From the NCBI GenBank assembly GCA_965242695.1, contig CBDESU010000001.1, forward strand, positions 768,001-832,000: DNA of 64,000 nt. The letters run 5' to 3'. Source of the DNA: Cenarchaeum sp. (GTDB taxonomy: Archaea > Thermoproteota > Nitrososphaeria > Nitrososphaerales > Nitrosopumilaceae). Positions 37,801 to 60,688 of the stretch are shown piece after piece. The notes below the pieces were generated by a model, which did no database searches, was not told the origin of the DNA, and saw only the letters and a program-made list of their open reading frames with translations. Position 1 is the first letter of the stretch, and each line of letters opens with the position of its first letter. The position numbers and the translations under genes are program-made.

Positions 37801-37824
37801 GAAGCGCCACCTGAACGGTCCAGT

Positions 37825-40028: not shown

Positions 40029-40041
40029 GCCAGCCTTATAG
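40029..40041 (+). promoter_or_regulatory. Zinc-finger-family promoter motif GCCA(G/A)(C/T)CTTATA(G/T), first copy
   Basis: Further copies at 41401, 42194, 44880, 59485 (each exactly 24 nt before ATG); mutated copy at 60308. Confidence 0.85.
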
Positions 40042-40064
40042 CCGGCAACCCAAGACGCGCCGCG

Positions 40065-40760
40065 ATGTCGGATCGCGCCACCTGCAGGGTATGCGGACGC
40101 GACTTTGCGCCGTACGGCCGCCGCCGCCGCGTCTACTGCAAGAAGTGCGCCGCAAAGGCCGACAAGGCGATCGTCCTGGACCCGGTCGTGAAATGCAGGG
40201 AATGCGGCCGCAAGTTTTCCGCGCCCAGCCGATCGTTCCGCCACTGCTCCGATGCCTGCCGCGCAGAAGGCGCGCGGCGCTACAACCGCGAGTACATGCG
40301 CAGGTACCTGACCGACCCCCAGAAGCGCGCCACGGCCCTGGCGCGCAACAGGGCATCGGCGGCGGCGCGCGCGGCCCGCAAGAGGGGCGGGAGGCCGCCG
40401 CAGAAGCAGGCGCTGCCCCGCGCGGACCCGAACGCCGAGCCGTCCGTGTGCGGGCTGTGCGGCCGCACGTTCGTGCAGTACGGCCGCGGCGTCCACGCCC
40501 ACTGCAAGCGGTGCACGGCCAGGGCCGATCGGGAGGTCGACAAGCCGCCGCACACAAAGTGCAAGGAATGCGGCAAGGCGCTCACCACGACCAGCCGCCG
40601 AGTCCGCTACTGCTCAAAGGCGTGCAGCGCCGAGGGCCTGCGGCGCAGCCGCCGCGAGAGCAGGCGCAGGATCAAGGCCGATCCGGAGAAGGGCGCCCTG
40701 GCGGCGGCGCACAGGCGGGCGCGGAATGCCGCCCGCGGGGGCAAGGATGCGGGAGGGTGA
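40065..40760 (+). CDS. Four-zinc-finger basic protein (Z1)
   Basis: Two copies of [CxxCG..F...YCxxC-linker-CxxCG..F...YCSxxC-basic helix DPEKRA]. Confidence 0.8.
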   Translation: MSDRATCRVCGRDFAPYGRRRRVYCKKCAAKADKAIVLDPVVKCRECGRKFSAPSRSFRHCSDACRAEGARRYNREYMRRYLTDPQKRATALARNRASAAARAARKRGGRPPQKQALPRADPNAEPSVCGLCGRTFVQYGRGVHAHCKRCTARADREVDKPPHTKCKECGKALTTTSRRVRYCSKACSAEGLRRSRRESRRRIKADPEKGALAAAHRRARNAARGGKDAGG

Positions 40761-40889
40761 TGCGGGCGGCGCCCGCGGATCGCATCTTCCGCCCGCGCCT
40801 TCCGACAGGGCCAAAAACGGCCCTGTGCGCCTGCTCGCAATGGCGGATCGGCACGGCGGGGATGCGCCCAAGCTGGGAGGAGGCTGGAG

Positions 40890-41144
40890 ATGAGCGTCAT
40901 GGGTGCGATCAGCACCAGTCTCCACTGCGCGTCGCAACTGCTCAGGCCGTACTTGGATGCCCAGAGGGCCGTCGAGTCGCGCGGCGGCTGCGTGGAACGG
41001 CCGGACGAGGCCAAGAGCCTCCTGGCAGTGCTCAACCCGTTGAGCTACCACCTCAGGGGCAAGACCTACTTTGCCCTGGGCGTCAACGGCGAGGAAATGT
41101 CCGAGTTTCTGCGCCTCCGCACCGCGAAGGCTGGCCGGACGTAA
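40890..41144 (+). CDS. Hypothetical protein, probably a frameshifted orphan continuing to ~41350
   Basis: Protein-like composition unrelated to flanking genes; continuation in another frame (EGILSIEARLG...). Confidence 0.35.
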   Translation: MSVMGAISTSLHCASQLLRPYLDAQRAVESRGGCVERPDEAKSLLAVLNPLSYHLRGKTYFALGVNGEEMSEFLRLRTAKAGRT

Positions 41145-41436
41145 GAGAAGGCATACTGTCCATCGAGGCCAGGCTCGGGGATGGCGCGGGCGGCCGGGCT
41201 GTGCTATCCGGCGAGGACCTGTCGATCCTCGGCGGCGTATCCGATGCCCTTGACAGCGTGTGCGCGTCCCTGTTCAGCGAGATGCGCGGGCGATGCGCTC
41301 CCGCTGCGTGGGATGCGCTATCCGCGAGCGGATCGGCAGGGCCGAGTAGCCAGTGGCCGAAATCCCGGGCGGCCGGCGGCGCGCCCCGCAGGGCCGGCTA
41401 GCCAGCCTTATATCCGTCAACTCGATGCGCGGCGCG

Positions 41437-42135
41437 ATGCCGGGGCCCGCCGCATGCCTGCTGTGCGGGCGCATCTTTGAGCGGCATGGACGCGGCGGCC
41501 TGCGCGCGTACTGCAAGCGGTGCACCGCCAGGGCCGACAGGGAGATCGCCGTGAGGCCTGTCGTGCAATGCGGGGAGTGCGGCAGCGAGTTTTCCGCGCC
41601 CCGCCGATCGTTCCGCTACTGCTCCGATGCCTGCCGCACCGAGGCCGCGCGCCGCCGCAACCTCGAGCACCAGCGCAAGTACATGGCCGACCCCGAGAAG
41701 CGCGCCATAACCGCGGCGCGGGCGAGGGCCGCAGCGGCGGCCCGCGCGGCCCGCAAGGGGGGAGGGGGGCCGCCGCCGCGGCGGCGGCCGCCTCGCGCGG
41801 ACTCGAGCGCCGAGCCGTCCGTATGCCGGCTGTGCGGGCGCAGCTTTGGGCAGCACGGCCGCGGCCTGCGCGCGTACTGCAAGCGGTGCACCGCCAGGGC
41901 CGACAGGGAGGCGGGCAGGACGCTGCGCGCAAAGTGCAAGGAGTGCGGCAAGGCGTTTTCCACTGCCCGCCGCTCCGTACGCTACTGCTCGGACGGGTGC
42001 AGCGCCGAGGGCCTGCGGCGCAGCTACCGCGAGAGCAAGCGCAGGATCAAGGCCGATCCGGAAAAGCGCGCCCTGGCCGCGGCGCAGGGGAGGGCATGGA
42101 GCGCGGCCCACAGGGGCAGGAAGGCGGGAGGGTGA
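41437..42135 (+). CDS. Four-zinc-finger basic protein (Z2)
   Basis: Same architecture; promoter motif 24 nt upstream. Confidence 0.8.
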   Translation: MPGPAACLLCGRIFERHGRGGLRAYCKRCTARADREIAVRPVVQCGECGSEFSAPRRSFRYCSDACRTEAARRRNLEHQRKYMADPEKRAITAARARAAAAARAARKGGGGPPPRRRPPRADSSAEPSVCRLCGRSFGQHGRGLRAYCKRCTARADREAGRTLRAKCKECGKAFSTARRSVRYCSDGCSAEGLRRSYRESKRRIKADPEKRALAAAQGRAWSAAHRGRKAGG

Positions 42136-42229
42136 CGCGGGCGGCGCCCGCGGATCGCATCCTCGGCCGGCGTACGCGCCCGGCGGCCGGCCCGCCAGCC
42201 TTATAGCCGCGCATTTGATGCGCGGCGCG

Positions 42230-42931
42230 ATGGGGGAGCGGATCGCATGCAAGATGTGCGGGCGCGGCTTTGAGCAGTACGGCAGCGGCCGCCGCGCCTT
42301 CTGCAGGGAGTGCACGGCCAGGGCCGACAGGGAGATCGCCGCAAGGCCCGCCGTGAAGTGCAGGGAGTGCGGCAGCGAGTTTTCCGCGCCCAGCCGATCG
42401 TTCCGCTACTGCTCCGATGCCTGCCGCACCGAGTTTGTGCGGCGCTACAACCGCGAGTACCAGCGCAGGTACCTGGCCGATCCCGAGAAGCGCGCCGTGG
42501 CACTGGCGCGCACAAGGGCATCGGCCGCGGCCCGCGCGGCCCGCAAGAGGGGCGGGAGGCCGCCGCGGCCGCTGCCGCCGCAGCGGCCGGTGCGCGCGGA
42601 CCCGAGCGCCGAGCCGTCAGTGTGCGGGCTGTGCGGGAGCGGCTTTGCGCCGTACGGACATACCCACCACGCCTACTGCAAGAAATGCACCGCCAGGGCC
42701 GATCGGGAGATCGCCAGGACGCTGCGCGCAGACTGCAAGGCGTGCGGCAGGGCGTTTTCCGCGACCAACCGCAACGTCCGCTACTGCTCAGCGGCCTGCC
42801 GCGCAGACGGCGTGCGGCGCAGCCACCTCGAGAGCAGGCGCAGGATCGAGTCCGATCCCGAAAAGAGCGCCCTGGCGGCGGCGCAGAGGAGGGCATGCAG
42901 CGCCGCCCGCAGGGGCGATGCGGGCAGGTGA
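42230..42931 (+). CDS. Four-zinc-finger basic protein (Z3)
   Basis: Same architecture; promoter motif 24 nt upstream. Confidence 0.8.
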   Translation: MGERIACKMCGRGFEQYGSGRRAFCRECTARADREIAARPAVKCRECGSEFSAPSRSFRYCSDACRTEFVRRYNREYQRRYLADPEKRAVALARTRASAAARAARKRGGRPPRPLPPQRPVRADPSAEPSVCGLCGSGFAPYGHTHHAYCKKCTARADREIARTLRADCKACGRAFSATNRNVRYCSAACRADGVRRSHLESRRRIESDPEKSALAAAQRRACSAARRGDAGR

Positions 42932-43009
42932 TGCGGCATCGCCCGTTCCCCGCGCGCGTCCCGGGGCCGGCCCGCCGGCCCTGCCGCCCGCAATTCCAAG
43001 AGGGGCGCG

Positions 43010-43726
43010 GCGGCGGCCGGGCGGACCGAGTGCCTGCTGTGCGGCCGCGCCCTTGCGCGGCGGGGCCGCGGCGGCGGCCGCCCGCACTGCAGGGAGTGCG
43101 CGGCCAGGGACGGCAAAAAGGCCTCCCGGACGCCGCGCATTGACTGCAAGGAGTGCGGCAAGGGGTTTGCCGCGGCCAGCCGCCTCGTCCGCTACTGCTC
43201 GGACGAGTGCCGCGCCGCCAGCGTGCGCCGATACAATCGGGAATACCAGCGCAGGTACCTGGCCGACCCGGAGAAGCGCGCCCTGGCCACGGCGCGCAAC
43301 AGGGCATCGGCCGCGGCCCGCGCGGCCCGCAAGAGGGGCGGGAGGCCGCCGCTGCCGCTGCCGCCGCGGCGCGCGGACCCGAACGCCGAGCCGTCCACAT
43401 GCAGGCTGTGCGGGAGCGGCTTTGCGCCGTACGGCCATACCCACCACGCCTACTGCAGGCGGTGCGCGGCCAAGGCCGATCGGGAGATCGCCAGGACGCT
43501 GCGCGCAAGATGCAAGGCGTGCGGCGGCAGGTTTTCCACGTCCAACCGCCTCGTCCGCTACTGCTCGGACGAGTGCCGCGCCGAGGGCCTGCGGCGCAGC
43601 CGCATCAAGAGCGCCCTCAAGCGCATGGCCGGCCCAGGGAAGCGCGCCGTCGAGGCGGCGCAGGCGAGGGAGCGGCGCGCCGCCAGCAGGCCAAAGAGGC
43701 GTGGCGGCGCGGCCCGCGCCGCCTGA
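43010..43726 (+). pseudogene. Four-zinc-finger protein (Z4), frame intact but promoter and ATG lost
   Basis: All 16 Cys retained; no canonical start before finger 1; same frame as Z3 behind one TGA. Confidence 0.65.
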
Positions 43727-44798: not shown

Positions 44799-44915
44799 AA
44801 AGTGGCGGATACCGGTTGGATATATACCCTTCGCGTAGGCGTGAGAAAAGTCGGTGCGTCCCAGGCGGTCGGCCGGCCCGCCAGTCTTATATCGATGAGA
44901 TCGGCACCAGGAGCG

Positions 44916-45614
44916 ATGTCGGGGCCGGCTGCCGTATGCATCCTATGCGGCGCAAGCTTTGCGCCGTACGGCCGCGGCGCCCGCACTTTTTGCAGGCGGT
45001 GCGCGGCAAGGGCCGACAGGGAGGCCGGCAGGGCGCTGCACATGGACTGCAAGGCGTGCGGCAAGAGGTTTTCAGCGCCGCGCCGATCCGCCCGCTACTG
45101 CTCGGACGAGTGCCGCGCCGAGGGCGCGCGCCGCCGCAACCGCGAGCACCAGCGCAAGTACGTGGCCGACCCCGAGAAGCGCGCCATAACGGCGGCGCGA
45201 AACAGGGCCATCGCGGCGGCCCGCAGGGCCCGCGACAGGGGCGGGAGGCCGCCGCAGCGGCAGGCGCCGCCGCGAGCGGACCCTGACGCCGAGCCGTCCG
45301 TATGCAGGCTGTGCGGGCGCACATTTGCGCAGTACGGCCGCAGTAACCGGCACGCCTACTGCAGGCGGTGCACGGCAAGGGCCGACAGGGAGGTGGGCAG
45401 GACGTTGCGCTCAAAGTGCGCGGGGTGCGGCGGCAGGTTTTCCACGACCAGCCTCGCCGTGCGCTACTGCTCGGACGAGTGCCGCGCAGACGGCGCGCTG
45501 CGCAGCCAGCGCAAGAGCGATCTCAGGCTCAAGGCCGATCCCGGGAGGCGCGCCCTCGCGGAGGCGCAGAAAAGGGCGCTGAGGACCGCCCGCATGGGCG
45601 GGGAGGAGCGGTGA
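44916..45614 (+). CDS. Four-zinc-finger basic protein (Z5)
   Basis: Same architecture; promoter motif 24 nt upstream. Confidence 0.8.
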   Translation: MSGPAAVCILCGASFAPYGRGARTFCRRCAARADREAGRALHMDCKACGKRFSAPRRSARYCSDECRAEGARRRNREHQRKYVADPEKRAITAARNRAIAAARRARDRGGRPPQRQAPPRADPDAEPSVCRLCGRTFAQYGRSNRHAYCRRCTARADREVGRTLRSKCAGCGGRFSTTSLAVRYCSDECRADGALRSQRKSDLRLKADPGRRALAEAQKRALRTARMGGEER

Positions 45615-45938
45615 TGCAGCCGCGGCCTCCGCTGCCGCCGCCGGGCTGATCGCCGGGGCGCCCGCCGCGCGGTGCGGGGAATGCGGCGGGGAGTCTTCCG
45701 CGCCGGGCCGATCATTCGGCCGCCGCCCCGAGCGCGCCGTGCGGCCTGCGAATCGCCGCGGCCGCGGGCACCGGCGCGGGTGCGCGGCCGGGCCGCTCGG
45801 CGCACATTTCTGGCCGGCGAGCTGCAAGGCGCGGGCGGCGGAGGAGGGGAGGGTGGGCGGGGATCTGCGGCAGCCGCGGCGACGGCCTGGCGGGGGAAGA
45901 TCGGCCGGCATAAATAGACGTGGGGCGATCCTGCCTGC

Positions 45939-46739
45939 GTGGAATTCGGCGCGGACGACACGGATACGGCCTATGTGTGGACGGCCGCGGCCGCGGCAAG
46001 GGCGTGGGCCGCGTCGGCGCACCACCTTGCCGCATGGGAGTCGTGGCAGATCGCATGGATGGCCATGGCCGAGTCGTCCGAGGCCGGCCGGAACGCGGCC
46101 GCCGCGGGGGTCGAGGCCGTCGGCAGGGGCGGCCGGATGGACGGGGCGGCGCTCGGGCGCGGCGCATCGGGTCTCGAGGAGGCCGTGCAGGCGCACCTGC
46201 GCGCAGAGGCCGCGTTTGGCAGGTCGGCCGCGCAGGCCAGATCGTCGACTGCGGAGTGGGAGATTGCGGCCGGCGCGCACTCCATGGCCGGCGATGCGGA
46301 GAATGCGGCGATGGTGCGCAGGCATGCCGACAACTCGCGCGCAGTCGCTGATGCGGCGGGCAAGTGGGCGACGCGGGCCGGCCGCGCCGCGGACACCGCC
46401 AAAGGGGCGATGCGCAAGTGGAGGGAGTTTGAGGCCGCGCGGTCGGGTGGCGGGGCATGGGGAGGCGACCGGGCCGCATGGATCGACGCGCAGGCCCGGA
46501 TACGCGACGAAGCCGAGCGCAGCAGGAAAAAGTGGCTGGGCAGGGCCAAGACGGCCAAGGAGTCGGTGCGGACGGCGGCCGAGCACGTGCAGCGGTACGC
46601 GGACATAGTCGAGGAGGCCTCTGCGGCGATCGACCGTTCGGATGCGCCCCTGCCGGCGGCGCGCGATGCCATGGACGCGTGGAAGGCGGCCGTGGAGGCG
46701 GCCCGGCAGGCGGTCGCCGCGTGGCGCGCGCGCGAGTGA
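45939..46739 (+). CDS. Ala/Trp-rich helical protein, family A (A11, paralog of A6)
   Basis: VWTAAAAARAWAASAHHLAAWE; GGCATAAAT 24 nt upstream. Confidence 0.78.
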   Translation: MEFGADDTDTAYVWTAAAAARAWAASAHHLAAWESWQIAWMAMAESSEAGRNAAAAGVEAVGRGGRMDGAALGRGASGLEEAVQAHLRAEAAFGRSAAQARSSTAEWEIAAGAHSMAGDAENAAMVRRHADNSRAVADAAGKWATRAGRAADTAKGAMRKWREFEAARSGGGAWGGDRAAWIDAQARIRDEAERSRKKWLGRAKTAKESVRTAAEHVQRYADIVEEASAAIDRSDAPLPAARDAMDAWKAAVEAARQAVAAWRARE

Positions 46740-47312: not shown

Positions 47313-47380
47313 AGAATATGTGCGAAGAGGTTTGCACCCGCATGCCAAACTGTCATGTATCCTAGAAGTCGGGCCGCCCC

Positions 47381-48116
47381 GTGTACTACATGTTTGTGGA
47401 CGAGTCTGGAAACCCTCGAGCCGCCGGAACCGTTGCGCGCGATAGCGGCGTCTACATACAGAGTGGAGTGATCGTGCACGGCGATCGCGTGCACGCCGCC
47501 AGGGCGGCCATAGACAGGGCCAAGTGCGAGCTCTTCAGGGGCAACGATCCCGCGAAAGTGGAGTTGCACGGGTATGAAATATGGAGGAATAGGGGCCGGT
47601 TTGCGTCAGACCTGCGCATTCCTGATCAAGAGAAAAAACTCGAGATATTTGCAAGAACGTCCCAAGCGATTGCAGAGTCTGGCTCCGTTCTGCTCAACGT
47701 TATCGTATGGAAGAACCGCGTTTCCTCGGGGCAACGCAGCCTGCTCGGCCCCCGTGGAGGTTGCTCACGGAGCGCTTCGATCAATACCTGGCCACCTGTG
47801 GCGGCGGCGAGGCCGGCAGCATTATTGCCGACGCCAGTAGCCGCGGCACAGAGACAAAGAAAGGGATGCGGTGCAGAAAACGTGCAATAGCATAGGGCGA
47901 TGCAAGTCTCGTCCTCCGTTGGTCCTGAAGGACATCCGCTTTGTAGACTCGCTCAGCGAGCCACTGGTGCAGGCCGCAGACATGGTAGCGTACATAATCC
48001 ACAAGCACTGCCGCGGAGATGTCTTGTTTGGGAGGTGGTTCAACGCCCTTGCCCCTTGCATGTGGCATCACGGCGGTAGAATCGAGGGGTTTGGAATAAG
48101 CTGCTACCCGCCTTGA
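47381..48116 (+). pseudogene. DUF3800-domain protein with two frameshifts
   Basis: MFVDESG, ELHG, then WRLLTERF...IIAD and FVDS...LVQAADMVAY in shifted frames. Confidence 0.8.
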
Positions 48117-49184: not shown

Positions 49185-49250
49185 GAGTGCGCGCGGCCCG
49201 CGCGCCGCCCGCACCGAACGGCATAAAGGCGGGCGCATGCGCCGCGGCGC

Positions 49251-50060
49251 GTGGAAAAGGGCGGCCGGAACGAGGGCACGGCCGCGGACGTCTGGGCTGC
49301 GGCGGGAATGGAGCATGCAAGGGCCGCCGCGCTGCACCGGTGCGCGGCGCTCGATGCATGCCTCCACTCGTGGGCGGCAAGGGTGGACGGCAGCGGCGCG
49401 CTGGGGGACGCGGCGGACGCGCGCGGCAGGATCGTGGGCGGGGAAGGGAACACGGTCAGCAGGAGCGCGATAGCGGCGACCGGGGCCGCGATGCAGCGGG
49501 ACGTAGACGCGCTGCACAGGGCAGCCGTAGAGTTCGGCCTGGCGGCCAGGCTGTCCGGCATGGCCGCCGACGGGTGGGACATGGCCGAGAAGGCCTTTGC
49601 CCGCGCGGGGAACGGCGAGTGGAGGCGCATCGCGCGCGAGCGGTCGGGCGAGGGCCGAAAGATGGCCGGGACGCTGGGCGCATGGGCGGAAAGGTCGCGC
49701 TCGACGGCCGGCACGCTCGGGCAGTCGGCAGGCGAATGGGTGGCCGGCACGGCCGACTGGCCGGATGGCGCCGTGATGGAAGGCGGCCGCGGCAGGTGGA
49801 CGGACGGGCAGGGCGAGCTGCAGGCCGCCGCCGCTAGGGAGCGGGGGCACGCAGAGGAGATGGTGCGGCAGACGCATGCGGCCGCGCGGGTGGCCGCCGG
49901 CGACCTGGAGCGGATCACACTCGAGGCCGGGCGGCGCACGGCCGCGCTTGGATGGGTTGCCTCGGCCGCCGACCGTGCGGAATCGGCCGAGCTGAGCGAG
50001 GCCGCAGCGGCGCTCGGGGAGGGGATGGAGGCGGGCCGGCAGGCTGAAAAGGGCCGATAG
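49251..50060 (+). CDS. Ala/Trp-rich helical protein, family A (A12, paralog of A9)
   Basis: High identity to A9; promoter motif 23 nt upstream. Confidence 0.78.
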   Translation: MEKGGRNEGTAADVWAAAGMEHARAAALHRCAALDACLHSWAARVDGSGALGDAADARGRIVGGEGNTVSRSAIAATGAAMQRDVDALHRAAVEFGLAARLSGMAADGWDMAEKAFARAGNGEWRRIARERSGEGRKMAGTLGAWAERSRSTAGTLGQSAGEWVAGTADWPDGAVMEGGRGRWTDGQGELQAAAARERGHAEEMVRQTHAAARVAAGDLERITLEAGRRTAALGWVASAADRAESAELSEAAAALGEGMEAGRQAEKGR

Positions 50061-50067
50061 GGGGCGC

Positions 50068-50880
50068 ATGGGCGTGGGCTGGGGCGTAGGCGGCCGGACG
50101 GCGGACGAGGACGACGGCGCGGCGGGCGTGTGGTCCGCGGCGGGGATGGAGCAGGCAAGGGCCGCGTCCGCGCGCCAGTGCGCGGCCATCGATGCGTGCC
50201 GGCATGCATGGACGGCGGAGGCCGAGTCGGGGACCGCCTTGCTGGAGGTGGTGCGGGCAAACGACGGGATCGTGGCGGGGCCCGGCGGGGGCGTGCGCCG
50301 CGGGCCGATCGCGGATGCGGCCGCCGCGCTGCGGCGGAGCATAGACGCGATGGAGCGGGCCGCCGTGGAGTTCAGCCAGGCCTCCAAGCTGTCCGACGTG
50401 GCGGCCGACGGGTGGGGCAGGGCAGCGGAGGCGTTCGGCAGGGCGGGGACGATCGATCGGGTACGGGCCGCGCGCGACCGCGCGGACGAGGCGCGCAAGA
50501 TGGCGCGCGGGATGGAGGGGCATGCGGCGCGGTCCCGCGCGTCGGCCGCCTCGTTCGAGGAGGCGGCGAACGGATGGGTGGCAAGGTCGGCAGAGTGGGA
50601 GGACGGCGACACGGTGGTCCGCGGCAGCGACGGGTGGCCGGAAAGGCGCGACAGGGCGCAGGGCGTGGCGGAGGGGAGGCGGGCAAGGGCCGAGGACATG
50701 GAGCAGCGCACGCTGGCGGCGGCGCGGCTGGCCGAGGCAGAGTCGGCGCACCTGGCGGCCGGCACCAAGAGCCTCACGGCGGGGGCCGTGGCACTGCTGG
50801 AGAATCTGCAAGCGCCCGAGGCGGCCGCTGCGCTGAGGGACGGAATGGAGGCGGCCGCTAGGGCCGTGCGGGACAGGTAG
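50068..50880 (+). CDS. Ala/Trp-rich helical protein, family A (A13, paralog of A10)
   Basis: High identity to A10. Confidence 0.78.
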   Translation: MGVGWGVGGRTADEDDGAAGVWSAAGMEQARAASARQCAAIDACRHAWTAEAESGTALLEVVRANDGIVAGPGGGVRRGPIADAAAALRRSIDAMERAAVEFSQASKLSDVAADGWGRAAEAFGRAGTIDRVRAARDRADEARKMARGMEGHAARSRASAASFEEAANGWVARSAEWEDGDTVVRGSDGWPERRDRAQGVAEGRRARAEDMEQRTLAAARLAEAESAHLAAGTKSLTAGAVALLENLQAPEAAAALRDGMEAAARAVRDR

Positions 50881-51225: not shown

Positions 51226-51477
51226 ATGGGCAAGCGCATTGCAGCCGCCACTGCCGCGGGCGTCGTAGTCGGAACGCTTCTCATCCCACATGTCGCCGAT
51301 TTTGTCGAGCCCATGCCGGCGGTTGCCGATTGCGGCCTCGTAGACGATGCCAAATAGCGTGATACTTGCATCCGCGATAGAACGGTTATGCGCACGCTCA
51401 TCATTGTTATGGTTCCGACATTGACGGCCGGGATCTTTGCATCCTACTTTGTCGCACATGCAAAACGATCGCCGTGA
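51226..51477 (+). pseudogene. Paralog of the small two-TM protein, with internal TAG at 51355
   Basis: ...ADCGLVDDAK*RDTC...RTLIIVMVPTLTAGIFAS aligns to 36733..36987 (Trp to stop). Confidence 0.7.
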
Positions 51478-52283
51478 ATGACGCAGGGAGACCGACAGAG
51501 CCATTCGCACTGCCGTCGGGCTGCATGGCGCGTGCGCGATTGCACGGTGCAGGTGCAGCTGCGCTGCGCCCATCGGACGCATGGCAGTTGGCAGTTCGTG
51601 CCTTGGATGCGGTAGCAGGGGGCAGCATGCCAAGTGCTGGGCGGGCGGCACGGAGCGGGGCCATGAGCCGCCCGCCCTGCTCCCCGCATGATCGCGGCAG
51701 ACTGCAGGGGGGTGGCGGGCATGGCGGCACCGCCCGTCCCCTGCTGCTCGGCGCTGCCATGCCGTCCGTCGTCGATGCGATCGCCTGCACGATCGCCGAC
51801 CGGCGGAACGGTGGGAGCGCGGGAGCCGCCCGGCGGCCCGCAGCGGCTCGACATCGCACCAGAGGCGGCCGTACCCATACGTGCGGTGCAGAGGCCAAGG
51901 CGCATCGCACACGTGGACGGGGGCAGCGCGACCCTGTTCGGCGGCCACGGATGGCCGGCAGCATTAAGCCGCATGTGCCGCGCCGTGCGCTAGGGGGGGG
52001 GGGGGTGAGCGGGCGCCTCGCCCAAGGTGCATCCGCGCGTCGTCTTTATGCCGCTTCTTGCGGCCGAGCCGGGCGATGCGGGCGGCGGCGACAGGGAGTC
52101 GGCAGAGGCGGGAGCGGAGGCGGCGGCAGAATGCGGCACCCGGCACGCAGGTGCGTCCTGCAAGCCTTTCCCGCTGGCACGGCAGGGCGCCCGAGGCCGC
52201 CAGGCGAGTCGCATTCCACTCCGAATGACGTCCTTAACCTACCTTCCCGGCACTTAAATAGGGCATTTCGGCGCCCCCGCCCG

Positions 52284-54083
52284 TTGGCCCGCAAAAGTGG
52301 ATGGCTCGACCGCGTCTCGCTGCGGATGCTCGGCAGCCAGTGGGCCTTTGTGTTCAGCCTGTTCTACGACCTTGAAGAGGCCGGCGCCCGCCTGGACCCG
52401 CTCATCCGAAGGTACCTCCCGATCGCCATCGCAACGTGCCTAGAGCTGTTCTACCGCCAGGTCGGGCAGCGCCTGTTCAATGCCAGCGCCCACATGCACA
52501 CCCCCATCAACATCAGCATCACGCTAGCCCGCATGGACGAGTTCCGGCGCGTCCTGGGCCTCTTTACGCAGGCCGACCTGTTCTGGCACAACCGCAGGGT
52601 CCAGGGCGTCGACGACATAAGGTCGATCCAGGAAGATCTCGGCATGGAGAGCGTGTTCAAGGACGACCCAAGGCTGCTCGACGTGTCGCACCGGATGTTC
52701 GGGGTGCGCAACGACAACGCGCACGGGGCCGGCGCCGGGCGGTACGACGTGCACCTGTTCCTGTGGGCGCTGCGCAGGCACCTTGAAAAGGTCCTCGGGC
52801 AGCTGCCTCCCCTGCGAGCCGTCTTTTGGCTGATCGGCGCGGGCAGGGCCGACCGGCGCGGCGACCGGGATGCCGCCCTCGGGCTCTGCCGCAAGGCGGC
52901 CGAGGAGGCAGACGCCGCGGCCGCTGCCGGCGCCGACCCGTCGGCGTGCCACGTGATCGCCGGCAAGGCGGCAGAGTGGTCGGGCGATCCAAAAGAGGCC
53001 GAATCGCGGTACGAAAAGGCGATTGCGGCGGATTCCGGCAACGCAAACGCGCACGCCGCCATGGGGTGCATGCTAGCGCAGTCCGGCAGCGCGGACGGGG
53101 CGCTAGCCGAGTACGACAGGGCCGTCGAGATCGAGCCGGGCTACGCGAGCGCGCACATGGGCAGGGGACACGTCCTTGCGCGCCTCGGCCGGGAGGGCGA
53201 GGCCCTTGAATGCTACCGGCGGGCGGCCGAGGCGGACCCCATGGATGCCGAGGCGCACATTGCGGCCGGCGCCGTCCACGAGTCGCAGGGCCGGCCGGCC
53301 GAGGCCCTTGAAAGCTACCGGCGGGCGGCCGAGGCGGATCCAACGGAAGCAGAGGCAGAGATTGCCGCCGGCAGGGTGCACATGTCGCAGGGCCGGGCGG
53401 CCGAGGCCCTTGAAAGCTACCGGCGGGCGGCCGAGGCGGACCCGTCGCACAGCAAAACGTACATTGCCGCCGGCCGGGTGCACATGTCGCAGGGCCGGGC
53501 GGCCGAGGCCCTTGAAAGCTACCGGAAGGCGGCAGAGGCGGATCCAAAGGATGCCGAGGCGCACATTGCCGCCGGCCGGGTGCACATGTCGCAGGGCCGG
53601 GCGGCCGAGGCCCTTGAAAGCTACCGGAAGGCGGCCGAGGCGGATCCAAAGGATGCCGAGGCGCACATTGCCGCCGGCGCCGTTCACGAGTCGCAGGGCC
53701 GGGCGGCCGAGGCCCTTGAAAGCTACCGGAAGGCGGCCGAGGCGGATCCAAAGGATGCCGAGGCGCACATTGCCGCCGGCGCCGTTCACGAGTCGCAGGG
53801 CCGGGCGGCCGAGGCCCTTGAAAGCTACCGGAAGGCGGCCGAGGCGGATCCAAAGGATGCCGAGGCGCACATTGCCGCCGGCGCCGTTCACGAGTCGCAG
53901 GGCCGGGCGGCCGAGGCCCTTGAAAGCTACCGGAAGGCGGCGGAGGCACTCGACAAGAGGCAGGGCGGCGCAGCCGAATCCATGCAGGACAGCAGCGCCG
54001 CTCCCGATCCGGCCGGCACAAGGGATGCGGCCGGCCTCGCGCTGGATCGGCTGCGTAAAAGGCAGGGCCGGCTCCGCGCATGA
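52284..54083 (+). CDS. HEPN-like domain + TPR repeat protein
   Basis: IAIATCLELFYR and RNDNAH (RxxxxH), then ~10 TPRs; TTG 25 nt after TTAAAT; stop supplied by the IS end. Confidence 0.75.
   Translation: MARKSGWLDRVSLRMLGSQWAFVFSLFYDLEEAGARLDPLIRRYLPIAIATCLELFYRQVGQRLFNASAHMHTPINISITLARMDEFRRVLGLFTQADLFWHNRRVQGVDDIRSIQEDLGMESVFKDDPRLLDVSHRMFGVRNDNAHGAGAGRYDVHLFLWALRRHLEKVLGQLPPLRAVFWLIGAGRADRRGDRDAALGLCRKAAEEADAAAAAGADPSACHVIAGKAAEWSGDPKEAESRYEKAIAADSGNANAHAAMGCMLAQSGSADGALAEYDRAVEIEPGYASAHMGRGHVLARLGREGEALECYRRAAEADPMDAEAHIAAGAVHESQGRPAEALESYRRAAEADPTEAEAEIAAGRVHMSQGRAAEALESYRRAAEADPSHSKTYIAAGRVHMSQGRAAEALESYRKAAEADPKDAEAHIAAGRVHMSQGRAAEALESYRKAAEADPKDAEAHIAAGAVHESQGRAAEALESYRKAAEADPKDAEAHIAAGAVHESQGRAAEALESYRKAAEADPKDAEAHIAAGAVHESQGRAAEALESYRKAAEALDKRQGGAAESMQDSSAAPDPAGTRDAAGLALDRLRKRQGRLRA
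53199..53945 (+). repeat. 102-bp coding tandem repeat (TPR units), ~7.3 copies
   Basis: GAGGCCCTTGAA at 53199, 53301, 53403, 53505, 53607, 53709, 53811, 53913. Confidence 0.95.
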
Positions 54084-54374: not shown

Positions 54375-56993
54375 TCAAACCCCAGTCGGGGACGGGTCGT
54401 GGACCCCCGTCCCCTGGTACTGCGGCAGGTCTAGCCGAGTCGTCTTGGCGCCATGAACCCGGACTTCCGGGTCATCGGACTTGCAGGGGGGCGGTACGGA
54501 CGGCTTGATCGGCACATGCCAGTTGCCAGGCCTTCGCCTTCGCCTCTGCGGGGTGCCGCATCGCCGCATGCTCGGCGGCGGAGGCTTCGGAGGGTGCCGC
54601 AGCCTGGCGGGTGCAGGACGCGGCGCACGCAGCAATCGCGGCATCGACCGGCGGCTGTCGGCGCGGAGGCGGATCGATGGAGCTGCCTGGGACGGAGCGG
54701 CCCTGCTCCAGTGGGCTTGCGATGCCGTTCGTGGCATTACTCGAGGGGCTTGCGGGGACTGCCGGGCATGCAGGGCGATTGCAACGGCCACGGCCTCTTG
54801 GATCCTCGCATCCGCGGCCGCGGCCTCCACGGCCTTGGCCGCCTCCGCGGCCGCCCTGATGCTCGCATCCGCGGCCGCGGCCTCCACGGCCCTGGCCGCC
54901 TCCGCGGCCGCCCTGATGCTCGCCTCCGCGGCCGCCCTGATGCTCGCATCCGCGGCCGCGGCCTCCACGGCCCTGGCCGCCTCCGCGGCCGCCCTGATGC
55001 TCGCATCCGCGGCCGCGGCCTCCACGGCCCTGGCCGCCTCCGCGGCCGCCCTGATGCTCGCATCCGCGGCCGCGGCCTCCACGGCCCTGGCCGCCTCCGC
55101 GGCCGCCCTGATGCTCGCATCCGCGGCCGCGGCCTCCACGGCCCTGGCCGCCTCCGCGGCCGCCCTGATGCTCGCATCCGCGGCCGCGGCATCCGCGGCC
55201 GCCCCTTTACCCCCGCTGCCGCCGCCCGCCCGGGCCGCCGCGATGCACTCGGGCGGCATCGGGCCGTCGAGGGGGCCCCTCCCAGGCCTTGCCGGCTTCC
55301 CGGCGCCACCCCACCGGTTCGGCGCGACCTGCCCGACCTTGAATATGTCGGCCGGGTCGGCGCCGCGGGCGAGCGCGACGAACGCCTCGTCGAGCGGAAT
55401 GCCCTGCTTGTCGCACGTGAGTATGAACGAGAGTATGACCGAGAACACCCTTGCCCCCTCGACGGTGCGGAGCTGGTAGCGCACGTTGCGCTGCGCGACG
55501 GGCACGCGCCGCACGTCGCTCTCGCCGGGGTTGTTCGTCGGCGGCATGTCCTTGAACATCAGGAACGTGACCAGGTTCTTGGCCGCGTTCTCTATCTCGA
55601 CGCGCGACGGGTGGCCCTCTGGCAGGCGCCCCGCTATGTCCAGCGCCCTCTGGACTATGGAGTCGCGCTCCTCCTCGGGCGCCGTGTCCATCCCGCTTAC
55701 GCGCTCGTACAGGGAGCAGAACTCGTGGTACGCCAACCTGACGGCGGGATCGTCGCTCACGATGGCGGCCTTCTTGAAGTTGTTGATGACATGGCGCCAG
55801 CACCGCTGGATCTCGCCGAGGATGATCTCGTACACCTTGTAGCCGTCGACGACGCCTGCCAGCTGGCGCGCGAACGCAAACTCCTCGTCGAATATGCCCT
55901 TGCCGCGCGAGGGGCGCGCCACGACCATGGCCGCGCACGCCACCGTGAGCAGCCACAGGTAGCCCTGCCTGCCGAACATGCGCATCGTCGTCTCGTCAAA
56001 GTGGCCCCATCCCGTGGATGTGAGCAGCCTTTCAAGGTGCTTCATGAACGGCTCGAGGATGCGCGCGGCCGCCCTGCGCCCGTTCCACAGCGCCGAGGCG
56101 CACGCCGACGTCCCGAGCAGGCTCTCCAGGTAGCGCGACAGCTTGCGGTCCGTCGCGGCAAGCGCGTACAGGACGAGCATCTTTGAGAGCATGACGGGGC
56201 CGAACCAGGTGCCCTTCAGGTCCGGCGCGTCCGGCGCGCGCGACCACTCGTGGCACTTTGAGCACCACAACCTGCAGACGATCAGCTGCCACACGTGGAC
56301 GCGCCCGTCGTCCTCGCCGATCTCGACGAACGTCTTCGACTCGGGCTGCTTGGCCTGGTGGGCGTACGTGGCGCGGCCGCAGTGCAGGCACTCGAAGATG
56401 GGGTAGCGGACGACCTTTTCGGGCTTTAGGCGGTGCGAGGCGCCGGGGTGGCCCATGGGAGGGCCCAGCGCCGCATCGGGCTTGGGGCGCCCGCACGACT
56501 CCGCCTGCTCCCTGTCGAACGCCTTGGCCAGCGGGTTGTACAGGGACGGCATGCCGCGCCGGCTGTTGGGCGTCTCGTAGTACTCGAGCCTCTTCTTGAG
56601 CTTGCGCACCAGCGCCTCCAGCTCGGCCAGCTTGGCAAGGTCCTTGGGGTTGTGGTTGCCCTTTATGGCGTCGATCTGCCACTTGATCGCGTCGAGATCC
56701 CGCGACATGTCGTCTGCCGTGCGCAGGTGCCCGGCGCCGGCCTTCGCGAGCTCGACGGCCATCTCCATGAACCTGCCGGCATCTTCCGTCCTGGCAATGT
56801 CCGCCCGGACCTTGTAGTCCTCAAACTCTGCCTTGAGCCTGTGGACCAGGCGGATCAGACTTGCGATCTCGGCGCGCAGCAGGGCCTTTTCCCTCCCATG
56901 CGCATCCGGCTCGAGCCGTATCCGGGTGACGGCAGGGCAGCAGGCGCACATGACGTCTATGCTCCTCCCGCCGTCCTTGTCGACATGTGGCAC
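54375..56993 (-). CDS. IS66 family transposase with low-complexity C-terminal extension
   Basis: Leucine zipper, CxxC...CxxC, HFDETT, VVDGY, QRCWRH, PTNNPGE; start uncertain. Confidence 0.9.
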   Translation of the reverse strand: MPHVDKDGGRSIDVMCACCPAVTRIRLEPDAHGREKALLRAEIASLIRLVHRLKAEFEDYKVRADIARTEDAGRFMEMAVELAKAGAGHLRTADDMSRDLDAIKWQIDAIKGNHNPKDLAKLAELEALVRKLKKRLEYYETPNSRRGMPSLYNPLAKAFDREQAESCGRPKPDAALGPPMGHPGASHRLKPEKVVRYPIFECLHCGRATYAHQAKQPESKTFVEIGEDDGRVHVWQLIVCRLWCSKCHEWSRAPDAPDLKGTWFGPVMLSKMLVLYALAATDRKLSRYLESLLGTSACASALWNGRRAAARILEPFMKHLERLLTSTGWGHFDETTMRMFGRQGYLWLLTVACAAMVVARPSRGKGIFDEEFAFARQLAGVVDGYKVYEIILGEIQRCWRHVINNFKKAAIVSDDPAVRLAYHEFCSLYERVSGMDTAPEEERDSIVQRALDIAGRLPEGHPSRVEIENAAKNLVTFLMFKDMPPTNNPGESDVRRVPVAQRNVRYQLRTVEGARVFSVILSFILTCDKQGIPLDEAFVALARGADPADIFKVGQVAPNRWGGAGKPARPGRGPLDGPMPPECIAAARAGGGSGGKGAAADAAAADASIRAAAEAARAVEAAAADASIRAAAEAARAVEAAAADASIRAAAEAARAVEAAAADASIRAAAEAARAVEAAAADASIRAAAEASIRAAAEAARAVEAAAADASIRAAAEAAKAVEAAAADARIQEAVAVAIALHARQSPQAPRVMPRTASQAHWSRAAPSQAAPSIRLRADSRRSMPRLLRAPRPAPARLRHPPKPPPPSMRRCGTPQRRRRRPGNWHVPIKPSVPPPCKSDDPEVRVHGAKTTRLDLPQYQGTGVHDPSPTGV
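54806..55200 (-). repeat. 57-bp coding tandem repeat (IRAAAEAARAVEAAAADAS), ~6 copies
   Basis: Directly visible inside the transposase tail. Confidence 0.92.
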
Positions 56994-57398
56994 GCCCGCC
57001 TCTCTCCCCCTCTCGACCCGTCCGGCCGCGCTCCGCTTATCATCTGCTGTGTAAACAATTCTTAACAATCTTGTAAAAAACCTGTGACTTGCCCTCCCGG
57101 GAGGCGCCGCCGAGGGCGGCCGCGCGCGGCCACATGGCCGCCGCCGTGCGCGGCTCCTGCCGGCAGCAGCGGCAGCAGGCTCAAGAACGCCGGCTCGGGG
57201 GCCGCGCGGCCACATGGCCGCCGTCACGCGGCCTCAAGATGCCGGCGGAACGGGCCATGCCCTGGCATGCGCACTAGGCAGAGGGGCGGCGGCACGCCTA
57301 GGGAGGGGCATGCGGATGGGGGGGACCTGAGCTCATGCGGCTCCGCGATGCGGGCGACATGACAAGGTATATTAAGAACACAGGTAGGGGTCGCGGCA

Positions 57399-57596: not shown

Positions 57597-57833
57597 GCCG
57601 CCGCGGGGTGGCCCCTCCCCTGTTTTCCATGGCTGGTGCGCCGTGGGTACAAGGCCGGTTTTTTTTTGCGGGCGACGGGTAGCCCTGCGCCGGACACGCC
57701 CTGCGACCCGGCGGGCCGCCGCCCCGTTGCCAATCGCAGATCGACCACACATCTCCGCGGATGCTCGGCGGCGGGGCGGGTCGTGCGATCTGCATGCGGC
57801 GCGGCCGGCCGACGCCGTTGAAAGCTGCCGGCG

Positions 57834-58290
57834 GGCGCAGGGACGAGAACGGCACCGCAAGCGTGTACCCGTCGGGCAAGGTCGCATGCTTGGGGGCAAA
57901 GTAGGTCGAGATGGCGGGCACGACGTGCACAGGCCGCACCGCCGCTGCGGGAGCGGTACGAGGTGGCGCCAGGCTCGGGGGTGTTCTCGGGGTGCCCTGT
58001 GGGGTCGAGGGGAGTAGTGGGACGGGGGATGGCGGCGGGGACGGCGAGGATGCCGCGTATCCGTCCACGTGTTTGCGCCGGGCGGCGCGGGAACGGGCGG
58101 GGGGGGGGGGGGGCGTGAGCAGGAGGACGCCGCCTCTGTGCAGGGGGCCGACCGTAGACGACATGCGCGCAGTCGTCGGCGACGCGTACAGGATGGCTAT
58201 AGGGGCCAGCGAAGGGCCGGAAACGGGATGCGGCGGCGCCCGAATCGACGATGCGGCAGGCGGCCGACCCCGTGCGCCGGTTCCCGCATA
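57834..58290 (+). pseudogene. Second, more decayed TBP-like copy
   Basis: ASVYPSGKVACLGAK*VE (TAG 57902), LRERYEV..SGVFSG, VSVHVFAP, LCRGPTVDDMRAVVGDAYR; internal deletion relative to copy 1. Confidence 0.65.
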
Positions 58291-58365
58291 ATGCATGGGC
58301 ATACAGGGCCCTGCCAGAGCCGGCAGTCTGCGATCGTATAAAAAACGCCGCAAGCGCGGCCCCGC

Positions 58366-59241
58366 ATGCCTGGCAGGCCGTCGGCGAGGCGGGAGCGCCG
58401 GCAGAACTGGCAGGCGTACGGCAGGGCGGCGGCCAAGTACACGGCGGCCGCAAAGTCGCTGATCCGCCTCGTAGAGTCGGCAAGGGGCGCCGCATCCGCA
58501 TGGTATGGCATGGACGAGCCTGCAATCGGCGGGGCCGCCCGCAAGGCGGCGGCCCAAATGTCGGCAGGCAGCGCGGACCGCAGGGATGCGGCCGAGAATC
58601 TGCTGAAGCTGTGCCGCCTTGACAGGGCGGGCCGCATCGAGATGCTTCCCGGCGTATGGAGGAGCGAGGTTGCGGCGGGGGCCGTGGGCATGGCGGCCCT
58701 GGCCAACATGGCCGCGGCCAGGTGGTCTGCAAGCGGCGCGCTGTCGAGCACGCCGGCGGCGCATGTAGTGCTTGCCGAGATGTCGGCATCGGATGCGTGG
58801 ATGGACTTTGCCGCGAGGGTGTATGCCGCCGAGCGCGCGGCCGTCGGGACGGCGCTGGAGGCGAGGCCGGCGGAGGAGCGCGCGGCCGAGGCGGCAAGGA
58901 ACGCCGAGCGGTCCGTGCCGACGCTGCCGCTGGAGGAATCCGAGGGGGGCGGCGGGGCGGCAGTCGGGGCGACGGGTGCAATGGGGCCGGGGGCGTCCGG
59001 CGGGCGGGCCGCGGAGGAGGGCGAGCGGGCCGCGGAGGAGGTGAGGAGGATTGCGGCGGGGGCGGATGCGAGGACGGCGGCGATGCGGCGCGAGGCGGCG
59101 AGCGTGTGGGCGGAGGCATCCGAGCTGTGGTCAAGGGTGCGCGAGGAGGCCGCGAGGGACGGCTACGCGTCCGCCGTCGCACTGGCCGCCGTGCAGGCAA
59201 AGACGGCAAAGGAGAATGCGGCGCGCCTGGGGGCCGCATAG
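58366..59241 (+). CDS. Ala-rich helical protein, family D (D3, closest to D2)
   Basis: AAKSLIRLV...PGVWR...AERSVPTLP; TATAAA 24 nt upstream. Confidence 0.78.
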   Translation: MPGRPSARRERRQNWQAYGRAAAKYTAAAKSLIRLVESARGAASAWYGMDEPAIGGAARKAAAQMSAGSADRRDAAENLLKLCRLDRAGRIEMLPGVWRSEVAAGAVGMAALANMAAARWSASGALSSTPAAHVVLAEMSASDAWMDFAARVYAAERAAVGTALEARPAEERAAEAARNAERSVPTLPLEESEGGGGAAVGATGAMGPGASGGRAAEEGERAAEEVRRIAAGADARTAAMRREAASVWAEASELWSRVREEAARDGYASAVALAAVQAKTAKENAARLGAA

Positions 59242-59520
59242 CCGGATGCACTGCGCGCTTGGCCGCGGGGCACGGGCGCTGCATCGCCGGCGCGCACGGG
59301 GCGATCGAAAAGGCGCACGGGTGCGATTCCGCGGCGGCCGAACGAGGCGGCGGGCGTGCGGGGCGCTGCCGGCGGGCGCGGACGGCTTGAGGCCATGGTC
59401 CCCGCCGGGGAGGGGGGGGGGCGCCGCTGGCGACGGCGCGCATGGTGCAGCATGGCGGCCCCGATGTGCACGCGGCGCGCCACGGCCAATCTTATAGCAC
59501 GGCGCCCGCGGCGCGGCGCA

Positions 59521-60246
59521 ATGGCGGTGTCCTCGGCATGCGCGCTGTGCGGCCGCGCGTTCGAGCATCGCGGCCATTCTAGACACGCCTTCTGCAAGCA
59601 CTGTAGGGCCAAGGCCGACAGAAAGGTCGGCAGGGCGCGGATCGTCAAGTGCGGGGAGTGCGGCAGGCCGTTCTCTGCGACGGCCAGCAGGGCCCGCTAC
59701 TGCTCCGATCCGTGCCGCTCGGAGGCCCTGCGCAGGTACAACCGAGAGTACATGCGGCGGTACGTGGCAGACCCCGAGAAGCGCGCCATCTGCGCGGCGC
59801 GCACAAGGGCATCCGCGGCCGCCCGCAGGGCAAGGGCCAGGGAGGACAAGGAGGGGCGGGGGCAACAGGGGCCCCGGCGGCAGGCCGGCCCAGGCGCAGC
59901 GAGCCGGCCGCGCGCCGCGCCGTCCGGCACGGGCGTATGCGCGCTGTGCGGCCGCGCGTTCGCGCAGTACGGCCGTACGGCCCATTCCTACTGCAAGCGA
60001 TGCACGACAAAGGCCGACAGGGAGATCGCCAGGGTGCTGCGCGTGGACTGCAGGGAGTGCGGCAAGGAGTTCTCGACGACCAATCGAATCGTCCGCTACT
60101 GCTCGGATGCATGCCGCGCAGCCGGCAAGGCTCGCGGCAAGCGCGAGAGCAACCGCGAGCGCATGGCCGACCCCGAGAAGCGCGACCTAGCGGCGGCGCG
60201 CATCAGGGCGGGAAAGGCCGCCCGCGGCGGCGGCGCACGCGGGTGA
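59521..60246 (+). CDS. Four-zinc-finger basic protein (Z6)
   Basis: Same architecture; promoter motif 24 nt upstream. Confidence 0.8.
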   Translation: MAVSSACALCGRAFEHRGHSRHAFCKHCRAKADRKVGRARIVKCGECGRPFSATASRARYCSDPCRSEALRRYNREYMRRYVADPEKRAICAARTRASAAARRARAREDKEGRGQQGPRRQAGPGAASRPRAAPSGTGVCALCGRAFAQYGRTAHSYCKRCTTKADREIARVLRVDCRECGKEFSTTNRIVRYCSDACRAAGKARGKRESNRERMADPEKRDLAAARIRAGKAARGGGARG

Positions 60247-60341
60247 TGCGCGCGCCGGCGCGCCTCGGGACGCCTCTTCCGCAAGAGCCCGCCTCGGGTC
60301 CGCACCAGCCAATCTTGTAGGCGAATTAAATGCGCGGCGCA

Positions 60342-60688
60342 ACGGAGAGGGGGATGGGCCTGCCGCCTGCATGCTGTGCGGCAGCGCGTTCGCGCAGTAC
60401 GGCCGCATGCCTAACGCCGGCAGGTGCAGATCTTGTGGGGCCGGTAGGCGCCTCGGCCTGTCCGACGCGCACTTTCCAATGCCCATGGTGGCGAGGGCAC
60501 CCGTCCGCGGGCCTGCAGGGGTGCAGGGATCACGGGGCGAGCGGGGCCTGCGCCCTCTCCTCCGCCACATGCGCCCGCCGCGGGTCGCCTCGGCCTGCCG
60601 ACCTGTCCCCCACAGGCGCAGTCCGGCGGGGAGGCGGGATGAACCACTTTTGGGATGCCGCAAGGCGCCGCCGCCGCCAGCACATTAA
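60342..60688 (+). pseudogene. Truncated zinc-finger family copy (Z7)
   Basis: Promoter TTATAG changed to TTGTAG, ATG to ACG; only CMLCGSAFAQYGR...CRSC remains. Confidence 0.6.

Follow-up and report, generated by a model that had tools for sequence, protein, structure and literature searches.

Why would an archaeal chromosome carry, clustered together, several related genes for stand-alone proteins with four zinc fingers each? The question is raised by a 64,000-nucleotide stretch of a Cenarchaeum sp. genome (contig CBDESU010000001.1, hereafter C1, positions 768001-832000; "the window" below means this whole stretch), part of a two-contig assembly of 3.89 Mb with a GC content of 0.67 to 0.68. 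An earlier note, written from the letters of the window, had described five intact genes of this kind, one start-less copy, and remnants, and had taken them for modular, diversifying regulators that bind DNA or RNA. Open reading frames (ORFs) and a search with a profile of the repeat unit returned the same inventory, with the remnant near 45670 seen by eye only. Our favored reading, to which we give slightly better than even credence, is that these genes form a lineage-restricted, tandemly amplified, nuclease-free zinc-finger family, kin to the finger arrays of phage HNH and NinG-like proteins, whose products most likely bind nucleic acid.

Architecture of the finger proteins

Five finger genes start with ATG (Z1, Z2, Z3, Z5, and Z6) and encode proteins of 231 to 241 amino acids (aa). 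These genes, their promoter motifs, and the incomplete copies are listed below by position in the window; structural models were scored by the predicted local distance difference test (pLDDT), and BRE denotes the transcription factor B recognition element.

39820-39972, plus strand: remnant, C-terminal half of a unit (profile positions 53-107; unit-profile hmmsearch, E 1.5e-6)
40029-40040, plus strand: promoter motif of Z1, GCCAGCCTTATA, BRE/TATA type, 24 nt before the ATG
40065-40760, plus strand: Z1, 231 aa, four Cys4 fingers, net charge +42
41401-41412, plus strand: promoter motif of Z2
41437-42135, plus strand: Z2, 232 aa, the copy modeled by AlphaFold2 (pLDDT 81)
42194-42205, plus strand: promoter motif of Z3
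42230-42931, plus strand: Z3, 233 aa
42935-43726, plus strand: Z4, mosaic, with both units complete but TATA box and start codon absent
44880-44891, plus strand: promoter motif of Z5, GCCAGTCTTATA
44916-45614, plus strand: Z5, 232 aa
45670-45717, plus strand: short finger-B remnant, RCGECGGESSAPGRSF, found by eye in the translation (the profile gives no match at E<1)
59485-59496, plus strand: promoter motif of Z6, GCCAATCTTATA
59521-60246, plus strand: Z6, 241 aa, directly behind the Ala-rich gene at 58366-59241
60308-60442, plus strand: remnant with a decayed promoter (GCCAATCTTGTA, 60308-60319), ACG in place of ATG, and a piece of finger A (60359-60442; E 2.5e-5)

Each protein is an internal duplication of a single unit composed of a Cys4 finger A, a Cys4 finger B, and an Arg-rich helical hairpin. 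This architecture had been described in the earlier note and is evident in an alignment of the ten half-proteins (111 columns; 42 to 70% identity to the first). Eight cysteines per unit (C7, C10, C26, C29, C45, C48, C62, and C66) are invariant in these ten units and across 56 units from two species, and among 90 full-length relatives the 16 Cys columns comprise 10 without any variation and 6 conserved to at least 90%. The ligands are spaced C-x2-C-x14/15-C-x2-C in finger A and C-x2-C-x13-C-x3-C in finger B. The C4 pattern of the earlier note was right, but its spacer counts were off by one to two residues (from F to YC, 9 to 10 rather than 7 to 9 in finger A; from F to RYCS, 7 rather than 6 in finger B); the finger-loop sequences it quoted, the stretch GSGFAPYGHTHHAYC common to Z3 and Z4, and its other quoted details are as it wrote them.

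The proteins are very basic (pI 10.4 to 11.3; net charge +30 to +43) and contain 16 to 17 Cys, and every copy is, as had been claimed, a stand-alone four-finger protein with no nuclease attached. Genome ORFs that match the unit profile are family copies and fragments only, with no nuclease or other domain, and an HNH model is absent from the Pfam matches of all six window proteins at E≤10. Finger-gene GC content at third codon positions (GC3) is like that of housekeeping genes (0.87 to 0.92 versus 0.81 to 0.94). AlphaFold2 modeled the whole protein with a pLDDT of 81 and a single unit with 83, and predicts for the unit a finger, a 12-residue helix, a β-hairpin finger, and two helices of ~21 residues. 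A homodimer prediction scored 0.00, which gives no answer and weighs neither way.

Z4 is in frame with Z3, with a single TGA between them. Its first ATG, GTG, or TTG does not come before 43223, and both the upstream TATA box and the ATG are lost. Readthrough of the TGA from Z3 into Z4 would yield an eight-finger protein; it is more likely that Z4 is a recently silenced copy than that it is part of a readthrough product. From a related 143-aa fragment in another assembly, the first unit has been lost.

Promoters of the finger genes

GCCA.YCTTATA has five exact occurrences in the window, each 24 nt before the ATG of an intact gene, which agrees in full with the earlier note. With one mismatch allowed there are 6 matches versus 0.31 expected (0 of 100 shuffles reach 6), and the sixth is the decayed promoter of the remnant at 60308. 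Genome-wide, 12 of the 14 exact matches are located at family ORFs, and another stands before a decayed copy at C1:837226. Whether the motif belongs to the family alone depends on which part of it is considered. In non-family ORFs of at least 80 codons, TTATA is found 23, 24, and 25 nt before the ATG in 65, 62, and 35 cases, respectively, versus 1 to 14 ORFs at each other spacing from 12 to 39 nt. TTATA 23 to 25 nt before the ATG is the general archaeal TATA box of leaderless genes in this genome. The flanks are specific to the family: CCCGCCAGY (the GCCA.YC flank) before the TATA box, where general promoters have an A-rich stretch at the place of the family's CCA, and GCGCGGCGCG before the ATG, with ~10 nt between the two blocks that vary (layout, CCCGCCAGYCTTATA ... 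GCGCGGCGCG). The family's "own promoter motif" thus stands with respect to its flanking bases and not with respect to the TTATA core at 24 nt.

Motif and spacing are the same in a second species, a congener with a 3.7-Mb genome, where the proteins are only ~51 to 61% identical to Z2. By a strict count, 19 of 27 copies from the two species have TTATA exactly 24 nt before the chosen start; the others have a TTG start, one-base shifts, a different choice of start by the analyst, or decayed promoters.

Relatives and known finger systems

No model in Pfam, NCBIfam, or PADLOC scored above its cut-off for the finger proteins. The best subthreshold models (Ecl1, NinG, DZR_2, and MYND) all cover the finger only: NinG of phage λ (PF05766) reached at best 22.0 bits over positions 6-59 of 193 (cut-off 25.4), Ecl1 (PF12855) 16.8 to 26.8 bits over positions 8-48 of 170 (cut-off 28.3), and DZR_2 (PF18912) at best 25.4 bits, in Z6 (cut-off 27). 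For NinG, Ecl1, DUF2116, and DZR_2, the likeness lies at the finger-bearing end, and the rest of each model is unmatched. Among the PHROGs, phrog_1271, annotated as "HNH endonuclease," matched with E values of 4.3e-17 and 8.8e-17, only at its noncatalytic positions 136-250 of 361, and the match spans finger A, finger B, and the helix. The profile search that the earlier note had suggested as a check therefore places the family nearest to the finger region of this phage profile and assigns it to no Pfam or NCBIfam family at cut-off.

The note's statement that similar fingers occur in HNH nucleases was well founded. Besides phrog_1271, HNH or HNH_3 scored above cut-off in 4 of 30 distant multi-finger relatives (10 matched no family at all); the repeats of these relatives are of the finger-B type, and HNH or HNH_3 stands beside B-type arrays. 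A comparison with predicted viral structures gave 22 fold matches at E≤1e-3, of which 8 carry the name HNH and 3 the name "Thaumarchaeal output domain 1," names that are automatic labels. Look-alikes in the Atlas were phage and NinG clusters, a lead only. Among solved structures, Foldseek found none at E≤1e-3 with the whole protein or with one unit, and a sequence search of the PDB gave summed weak matches to C2H2 arrays through the "CxxCGKxF" knuckle, with no single stretch significant. On viral contig L055 (4983-6851), a 622-aa protein consists of repeated B-type fingers ("CxxCGKxF...YCSxxC"; ~12 by eye) with basic linkers, and no nuclease domain was found among its Pfam matches; it looks like a phage-encoded poly-finger array.

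The closest experimentally studied system in the literature consulted is the homing endonuclease I-TevIII of phage RB3, which, in the part of PMC1865063 used here, combines an HNH domain with two tandem CX2CX12-13HX3C fingers required for DNA binding. Finger B (C-x2-C-x13-C-x3-C) shares the I-TevIII spacing, a comparison of spacing and not of aligned sequences. Unlike the phage HNH proteins, the archaeal family lacks the nuclease, has Cys rather than His as the third ligand, places an extra finger A before each finger B, and duplicates the whole unit, and its genes are chromosomal, tandemly amplified, and archaeal.

Is such a family unusual for an archaeon? The earlier note held that it was, and the answer differs between the fingers as such and the form in which they occur. 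According to the part of PMC2253796 (Tarasov et al. 2008) on which we draw, CPxCG-related motifs comprise two Cys/His patterns 7 to 40 residues apart, at least one being CPxCG, CPxCx, or CxxCG; single-finger proteins with them are common in archaea, a quarter being <100 aa with one motif and a size peak at 50 to 70 aa, and one of them, Brz of Halobacterium salinarum, is a transcription regulator. All four fingers of the Cenarchaeum proteins fit this motif as there defined (CxxCG, followed by CxxC or CxxxC 13 to 15 residues on), and both groups are stand-alone, with no enzymatic domain. In contrast to the small, single-motif proteins of that account, the family has 231 to 241 aa and four motifs and is internally duplicated, with long Arg-rich helices, and it is a fast-diverging, multi-copy family confined to two species. 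Thus, zinc fingers of this kind are not unusual in archaea, whereas the four-finger, tandemly amplified, lineage-restricted form is.

A second thaumarchaeal candidate, TackOD1 (PF18551), is described in the consulted part of PMC5847659 as a Cys-rich output domain of ~200 aa in thaumarchaeal response regulators, also found stand-alone, of unknown function and with 11 conserved Cys in five CXXC and one HXXC. On that description it resembles the family in being Cys-rich and mainly thaumarchaeal, and 3 of the 22 viral fold matches bear its name. Membership was rejected: the finger proteins have 16 Cys in two repeated units, an arrangement different from the one described for TackOD1, and PF18551 is absent from their Pfam matches at E≤10 and from the genome at E≤0.01.

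Distribution and evolution of the family

A profile built from the five window proteins matches 21 ORFs in this genome, 15 with two complete units, two rearranged (on contig 2), and the rest fragments; most copies lie at C1:807-881 kb. The 3.7-Mb congener has at least 12 full copies. No copy was found in the other three congeners, save a single weak match of 41 residues (E 8.3e-4), and no family match in 36 further relatives or, with the unit profile at E≤1e-5, in 300 other genomes of the phylum (122 genera). With the unit profile, 3730 proteins match at E≤1e-3; the number falls to 261 at 1e-10 and to 29 at 1e-30. A collection of 5.8 billion proteins contains 131 relatives at E≤1e-3, nearly all of which come from assembled metagenomes. 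A scan of genome contigs, in which the records of this genome itself were possibly not included, gave as its sole match a short, unrelated one in a Terriglobia metagenome-assembled genome. Single-unit proteins of 116 to 120 aa also exist. In the literature on sponge Thaumarchaeota genomes, archaeal and HNH zinc fingers, and TackOD1, no paper describing the family was found, and "zinc" occurs 0 times in PMC7848895 (supplements aside in both cases).

Genomes of the taxonomic family are mostly 1.1 to 1.8 Mb, and those of the genus 1.8, 2.0, 3.2, 3.7, and 3.9 Mb. The genus thus falls into two groups by size (1.8 to 2.0 versus 3.2 to 3.9 Mb); two of the three large genomes carry the finger family, and both small ones lack it.

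A tree of 27 copies places those of the congener, 12 in number, on one side of a branch with support 96/92, and therefore expansion or homogenization took place inside each species. In a tree of units, units 1 and 2 are apart, with 1 of 54 misplaced, so that the internal duplication is older than the expansion and exchange has occurred between homologous positions. Exchange itself is indicated by the pairwise homoplasy index (PHI) test for recombination (P = 0.004 for the six window copies, 0.003 for all copies of this genome, and 0.001 for those of the congener) and by the mosaic structure of Z4, which is closest to Z3 at residues 76-180 (84 to 95% nucleotide identity) and closest to other copies at both ends. 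The modularity proposed in the earlier note accordingly holds for exchange of segments among copies and is not supported for shuffling between unit 1 and unit 2.

Finger genes diverge fast in comparison with housekeeping genes. Between the two species, housekeeping orthologues have synonymous divergence (dS) of 0.23 to 0.39 and a nonsynonymous-to-synonymous ratio (dN/dS) of 0 to 0.23 by the same simple estimator, versus a ratio of nonsynonymous to synonymous differences (pN/pS) of 0.70 to 1.77 (pooled, 0.92) in seven independent sister pairs of finger genes. The estimator is crude, dS is compressed at a GC3 of ~0.9 (thermosome paralogues with 40% identity have a dS of only 0.89), and gene conversion blurs the tree. 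Within the finger genes, pN/pS is 0.63 at ligand and knuckle codons (P(less) = 0.017), 1.01 and 1.02 at the loop tips (not significant), 1.06 in the long helices, and 1.40 in the inter-finger linker (not significant). The zinc scaffold is conserved and the remainder changes about neutrally; the loops are not singled out. Together with the PHI results and the Z4 mosaic, the contrast with housekeeping genes upholds the expectation of a fast-diverging, recombining family. The further expectation of positive selection on the finger loops was not upheld, since their pN/pS is neither above that of the helices nor significant. A loop dN/dS of up to 1.8 to 2.1, obtained by pooling all 351 pairs, was set aside because the pairs are nonindependent and dS is compressed by GC3; the seven independent pairs show no such excess.

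Near-neutral change raises the alternative that fares best of those considered, namely, that the genes are decaying leftovers of homing endonuclease-type selfish genes that lost the nuclease and now drift and duplicate by unequal crossing-over, with no function in the cell. Outside the ligands, the sister pairs do not differ from a pN/pS of 1; the window holds a promoterless, start-less copy and three remnants, the rest of the genome holds rearranged and truncated copies, and HNH endonucleases are found among the relatives. Against this, all 16 Cys are conserved in the relatives, purifying selection acts on the ligand and knuckle codons, the two species have retained 15 and at least 12 intact two-unit frames, respectively, at a housekeeping dS of 0.23 to 0.39, promoter and start region are conserved around 10 variable nucleotides, and no copy in this genome keeps a nuclease. 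Conserved promoter and conserved zinc scaffold together argue against pure decay, and we consider the alternative rather unlikely.

Genomic setting

The rRNAs of the genome fit archaeal models (small subunit, 1450 bits; large subunit, cut at the end of its locus). An archaeal amoA is present (393.7 bits), and mcrA, looked for in the genome, was not found; the organism is therefore an ammonia-oxidizing archaeon, and a methanogenic or bacterial source was rejected. At least about half of the sampled words of the locus are found in runs labeled "sponge metagenome" from two studies, which is in line with a life in association with sponges, and near-identical pieces of it occur in several samples of public runs, as short-read contigs. 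Because these contigs split at repeats, the existence of the pieces can be read from them and not expression or turnover.

The left part of the window carries core genes (ketol-acid reductoisomerase and an ELP3-like radical SAM enzyme), a Fic protein, and a large surface protein. From ~29 kb on, it is a variable island of Ala-rich orphan arrays, finger genes, a GNAT gene with a small overlapping ORF, DUF3800, TPR, and an IS66 transposase, with features as follows.

29134-39661, 45939-46739, 49251-50060, 50068-50880, and 58366-59241: Ala-rich orphan family, 266 to 295 aa
44084-44798, minus strand: GNAT acetyltransferase gene (Acetyltransf_7, 32.1 bits; phrog_1758, E 3.6e-18), with a 71-aa ORF overlapping upstream
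47381-47890: DUF3800-like ORF (17.4 bits, under the cut-off of 21), inside the variable island
51474-54083: TPR protein with ~7 consecutive near-identical 34-residue repeats, typical of recent internal amplification
54375-57227, minus strand: IS66-family transposase ORF of ~950 aa, with long near-identical Ala-rich tandem repeats in its C-terminal part

The GNAT gene and the 71-aa ORF lie between Z4 and Z5 in an arrangement that resembles a GNAT toxin-antitoxin pair. For IS66, this genome has 14 matches, the large congeners 24 and 48, and the small ones 4 to 5.

The Ala-rich proteins have no match in Pfam, PHROG, PADLOC, or the Atlas, and at least 25 ORFs match them genome-wide. Their genes carry an inherited TATA variant of their own (ACGGCATAAAG). 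A finger gene stands directly behind an Ala-rich gene at three places in this genome and at one in the 3.7-Mb congener. With a single Ala-rich protein as the query, no match was found outside this genome, a negative that holds for that query only; a profile of six Ala-rich copies from the window matches an ORF directly upstream of a finger gene in the congener. The repeated arrangement suggests a possible functional tie between the two families.

Possible functions

We infer zinc binding, nucleic-acid binding, differences in specificity, and any regulatory role from the features described above. Nucleic-acid binding is the best reading because of the charge, the fingers, and the I-TevIII precedent, and DNA is a likelier target than RNA. 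The repeat unit is related to finger arrays that stand beside the nuclease domain in phage-type HNH endonucleases and NinG-like proteins. Each intact gene has its own BRE/TATA promoter, whose spacing suggests a leaderless mRNA, and each protein would hold four zinc ions on its 16 invariant cysteines. Binding to nucleic acid, with double-stranded DNA as our best guess, may involve the hairpin and helix of finger B together with the Arg-rich hairpins. All but the zinc scaffold changes near-neutrally and is reshuffled between copies by gene conversion, and the paralogues should therefore differ in the targets they bind. As to their role, we can only guess that they regulate or silence genes, or foreign DNA, in the variable island that they share with another amplified orphan family.

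Several observations weigh against a nucleic-acid-binding family maintained for its function. A tblastn search against 50,697 phage records gave no match at E≤1e-3, and the phage link consequently rests on profiles and folds. VIA-align found no chain at Z≥5 among solved structures, and the best match there, YacG, binds a protein and not DNA. With one promoterless copy and three remnants in the window, copies are being lost, and dead copies and a near-neutral rate argue for weak constraint on any single copy; the pooled pN/pS of 0.92 fits weak constraint and diversification equally well. Among the public runs that contain the locus, no RNA run is listed. A link of the family to insertion-sequence load is not supported, as the 3.2-Mb congener, with 48 IS66 matches, has no copy.

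The match to YacG points to an alternative in which the fingers bind proteins and the family modulates or inhibits host or viral enzymes, much as YacG inhibits gyrase or as fingers of the MYND and FCS types make contacts with proteins. Finger B and its helix align with gyrase-bound YacG (PDB model 4tma; Z 4.1, root mean square deviation [rmsd] 5.2, 45 residues) and with an FCS finger (PDB model 2w0t; Z 3.3, rmsd 3.8, 40 residues; Foldseek template modeling score 0.55, probability 0.41), and the subthreshold Pfam matches include MYND and Ecl1. Since these alignments all lie within the range of chance arrangements, and the net charge of +30 to +43 and the link to HNH fingers point to nucleic acid, protein binding appears unlikely.

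If nucleic acid is the ligand, as we favor, it could also be RNA; the proteins might then be RNA chaperones, for instance, or bind the transcripts of mobile elements. Finger A and the helix weakly match the C-terminal zinc ribbon of TiaS (E 0.002; Pfam Zn_ribbon_TiaS is subthreshold), the long helices are rich in Arg, and FCS fingers are reported to be RNA binders. These matches are all weak, and the fingers of I-TevIII, the sole experimentally characterized relative type, bind DNA, to judge from the part of that report used here; an RNA target, too, seems doubtful.

A bolder form of the DNA-binding reading is offered by analogy with the KRAB zinc-finger arrays of vertebrates, which are clustered multi-finger genes with lineage-specific expansion, fast divergence, and exchange between copies. 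The archaeal family resembles them in these four respects, by analogy only. It has another type of finger, belongs to another domain of life, and lacks a repressor domain, and, in contrast to KRAB arrays, no link to mobile elements emerged here, as it does not follow IS66 load. We entertain as a long shot that the family is the archaeal counterpart of such arrays: viral homing-endonuclease fingers, taken up by a sponge symbiont, freed from their nuclease, and amplified into tandem clusters of recombining, fast-diverging proteins, each of which would recognize its own stretch of foreign or mobile DNA and either silence it or protect its target site against cutting.

That the proteins are "eukaryote-like" symbiosis factors acting on a sponge host, as the sponge-labeled runs from two studies, the TPR protein in the same island, and weak matches to the eukaryotic families Ecl1, MYND, and PLATZ might suggest, is very improbable, given that no hydrophobic N-terminal segment is visible (by inspection of the sequences, with no signal-peptide predictor), that the eukaryotic matches of the window proteins are below cut-off and confined to the finger, and that phage proteins come nearest in both profile and fold comparisons.

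Implications

If the finger genes are drifting leftovers, the family would still be a useful marker of symbiont genome inflation. Should the KRAB-like reading hold, they would constitute a germ line-encoded conflict system that works by reading sequence, a type for which no prokaryotic example has been described. If copy-specific DNA binding is true, the family would illustrate how DNA-binding modules of a viral homing endonuclease are put to new use in the absence of the nuclease, and it would count among the traceable causes of the genome-size difference within the genus. It would also represent one of few instances among prokaryotes of a modular recognition family with several fingers that expands and diversifies inside a species, as eukaryotic zinc-finger arrays do.

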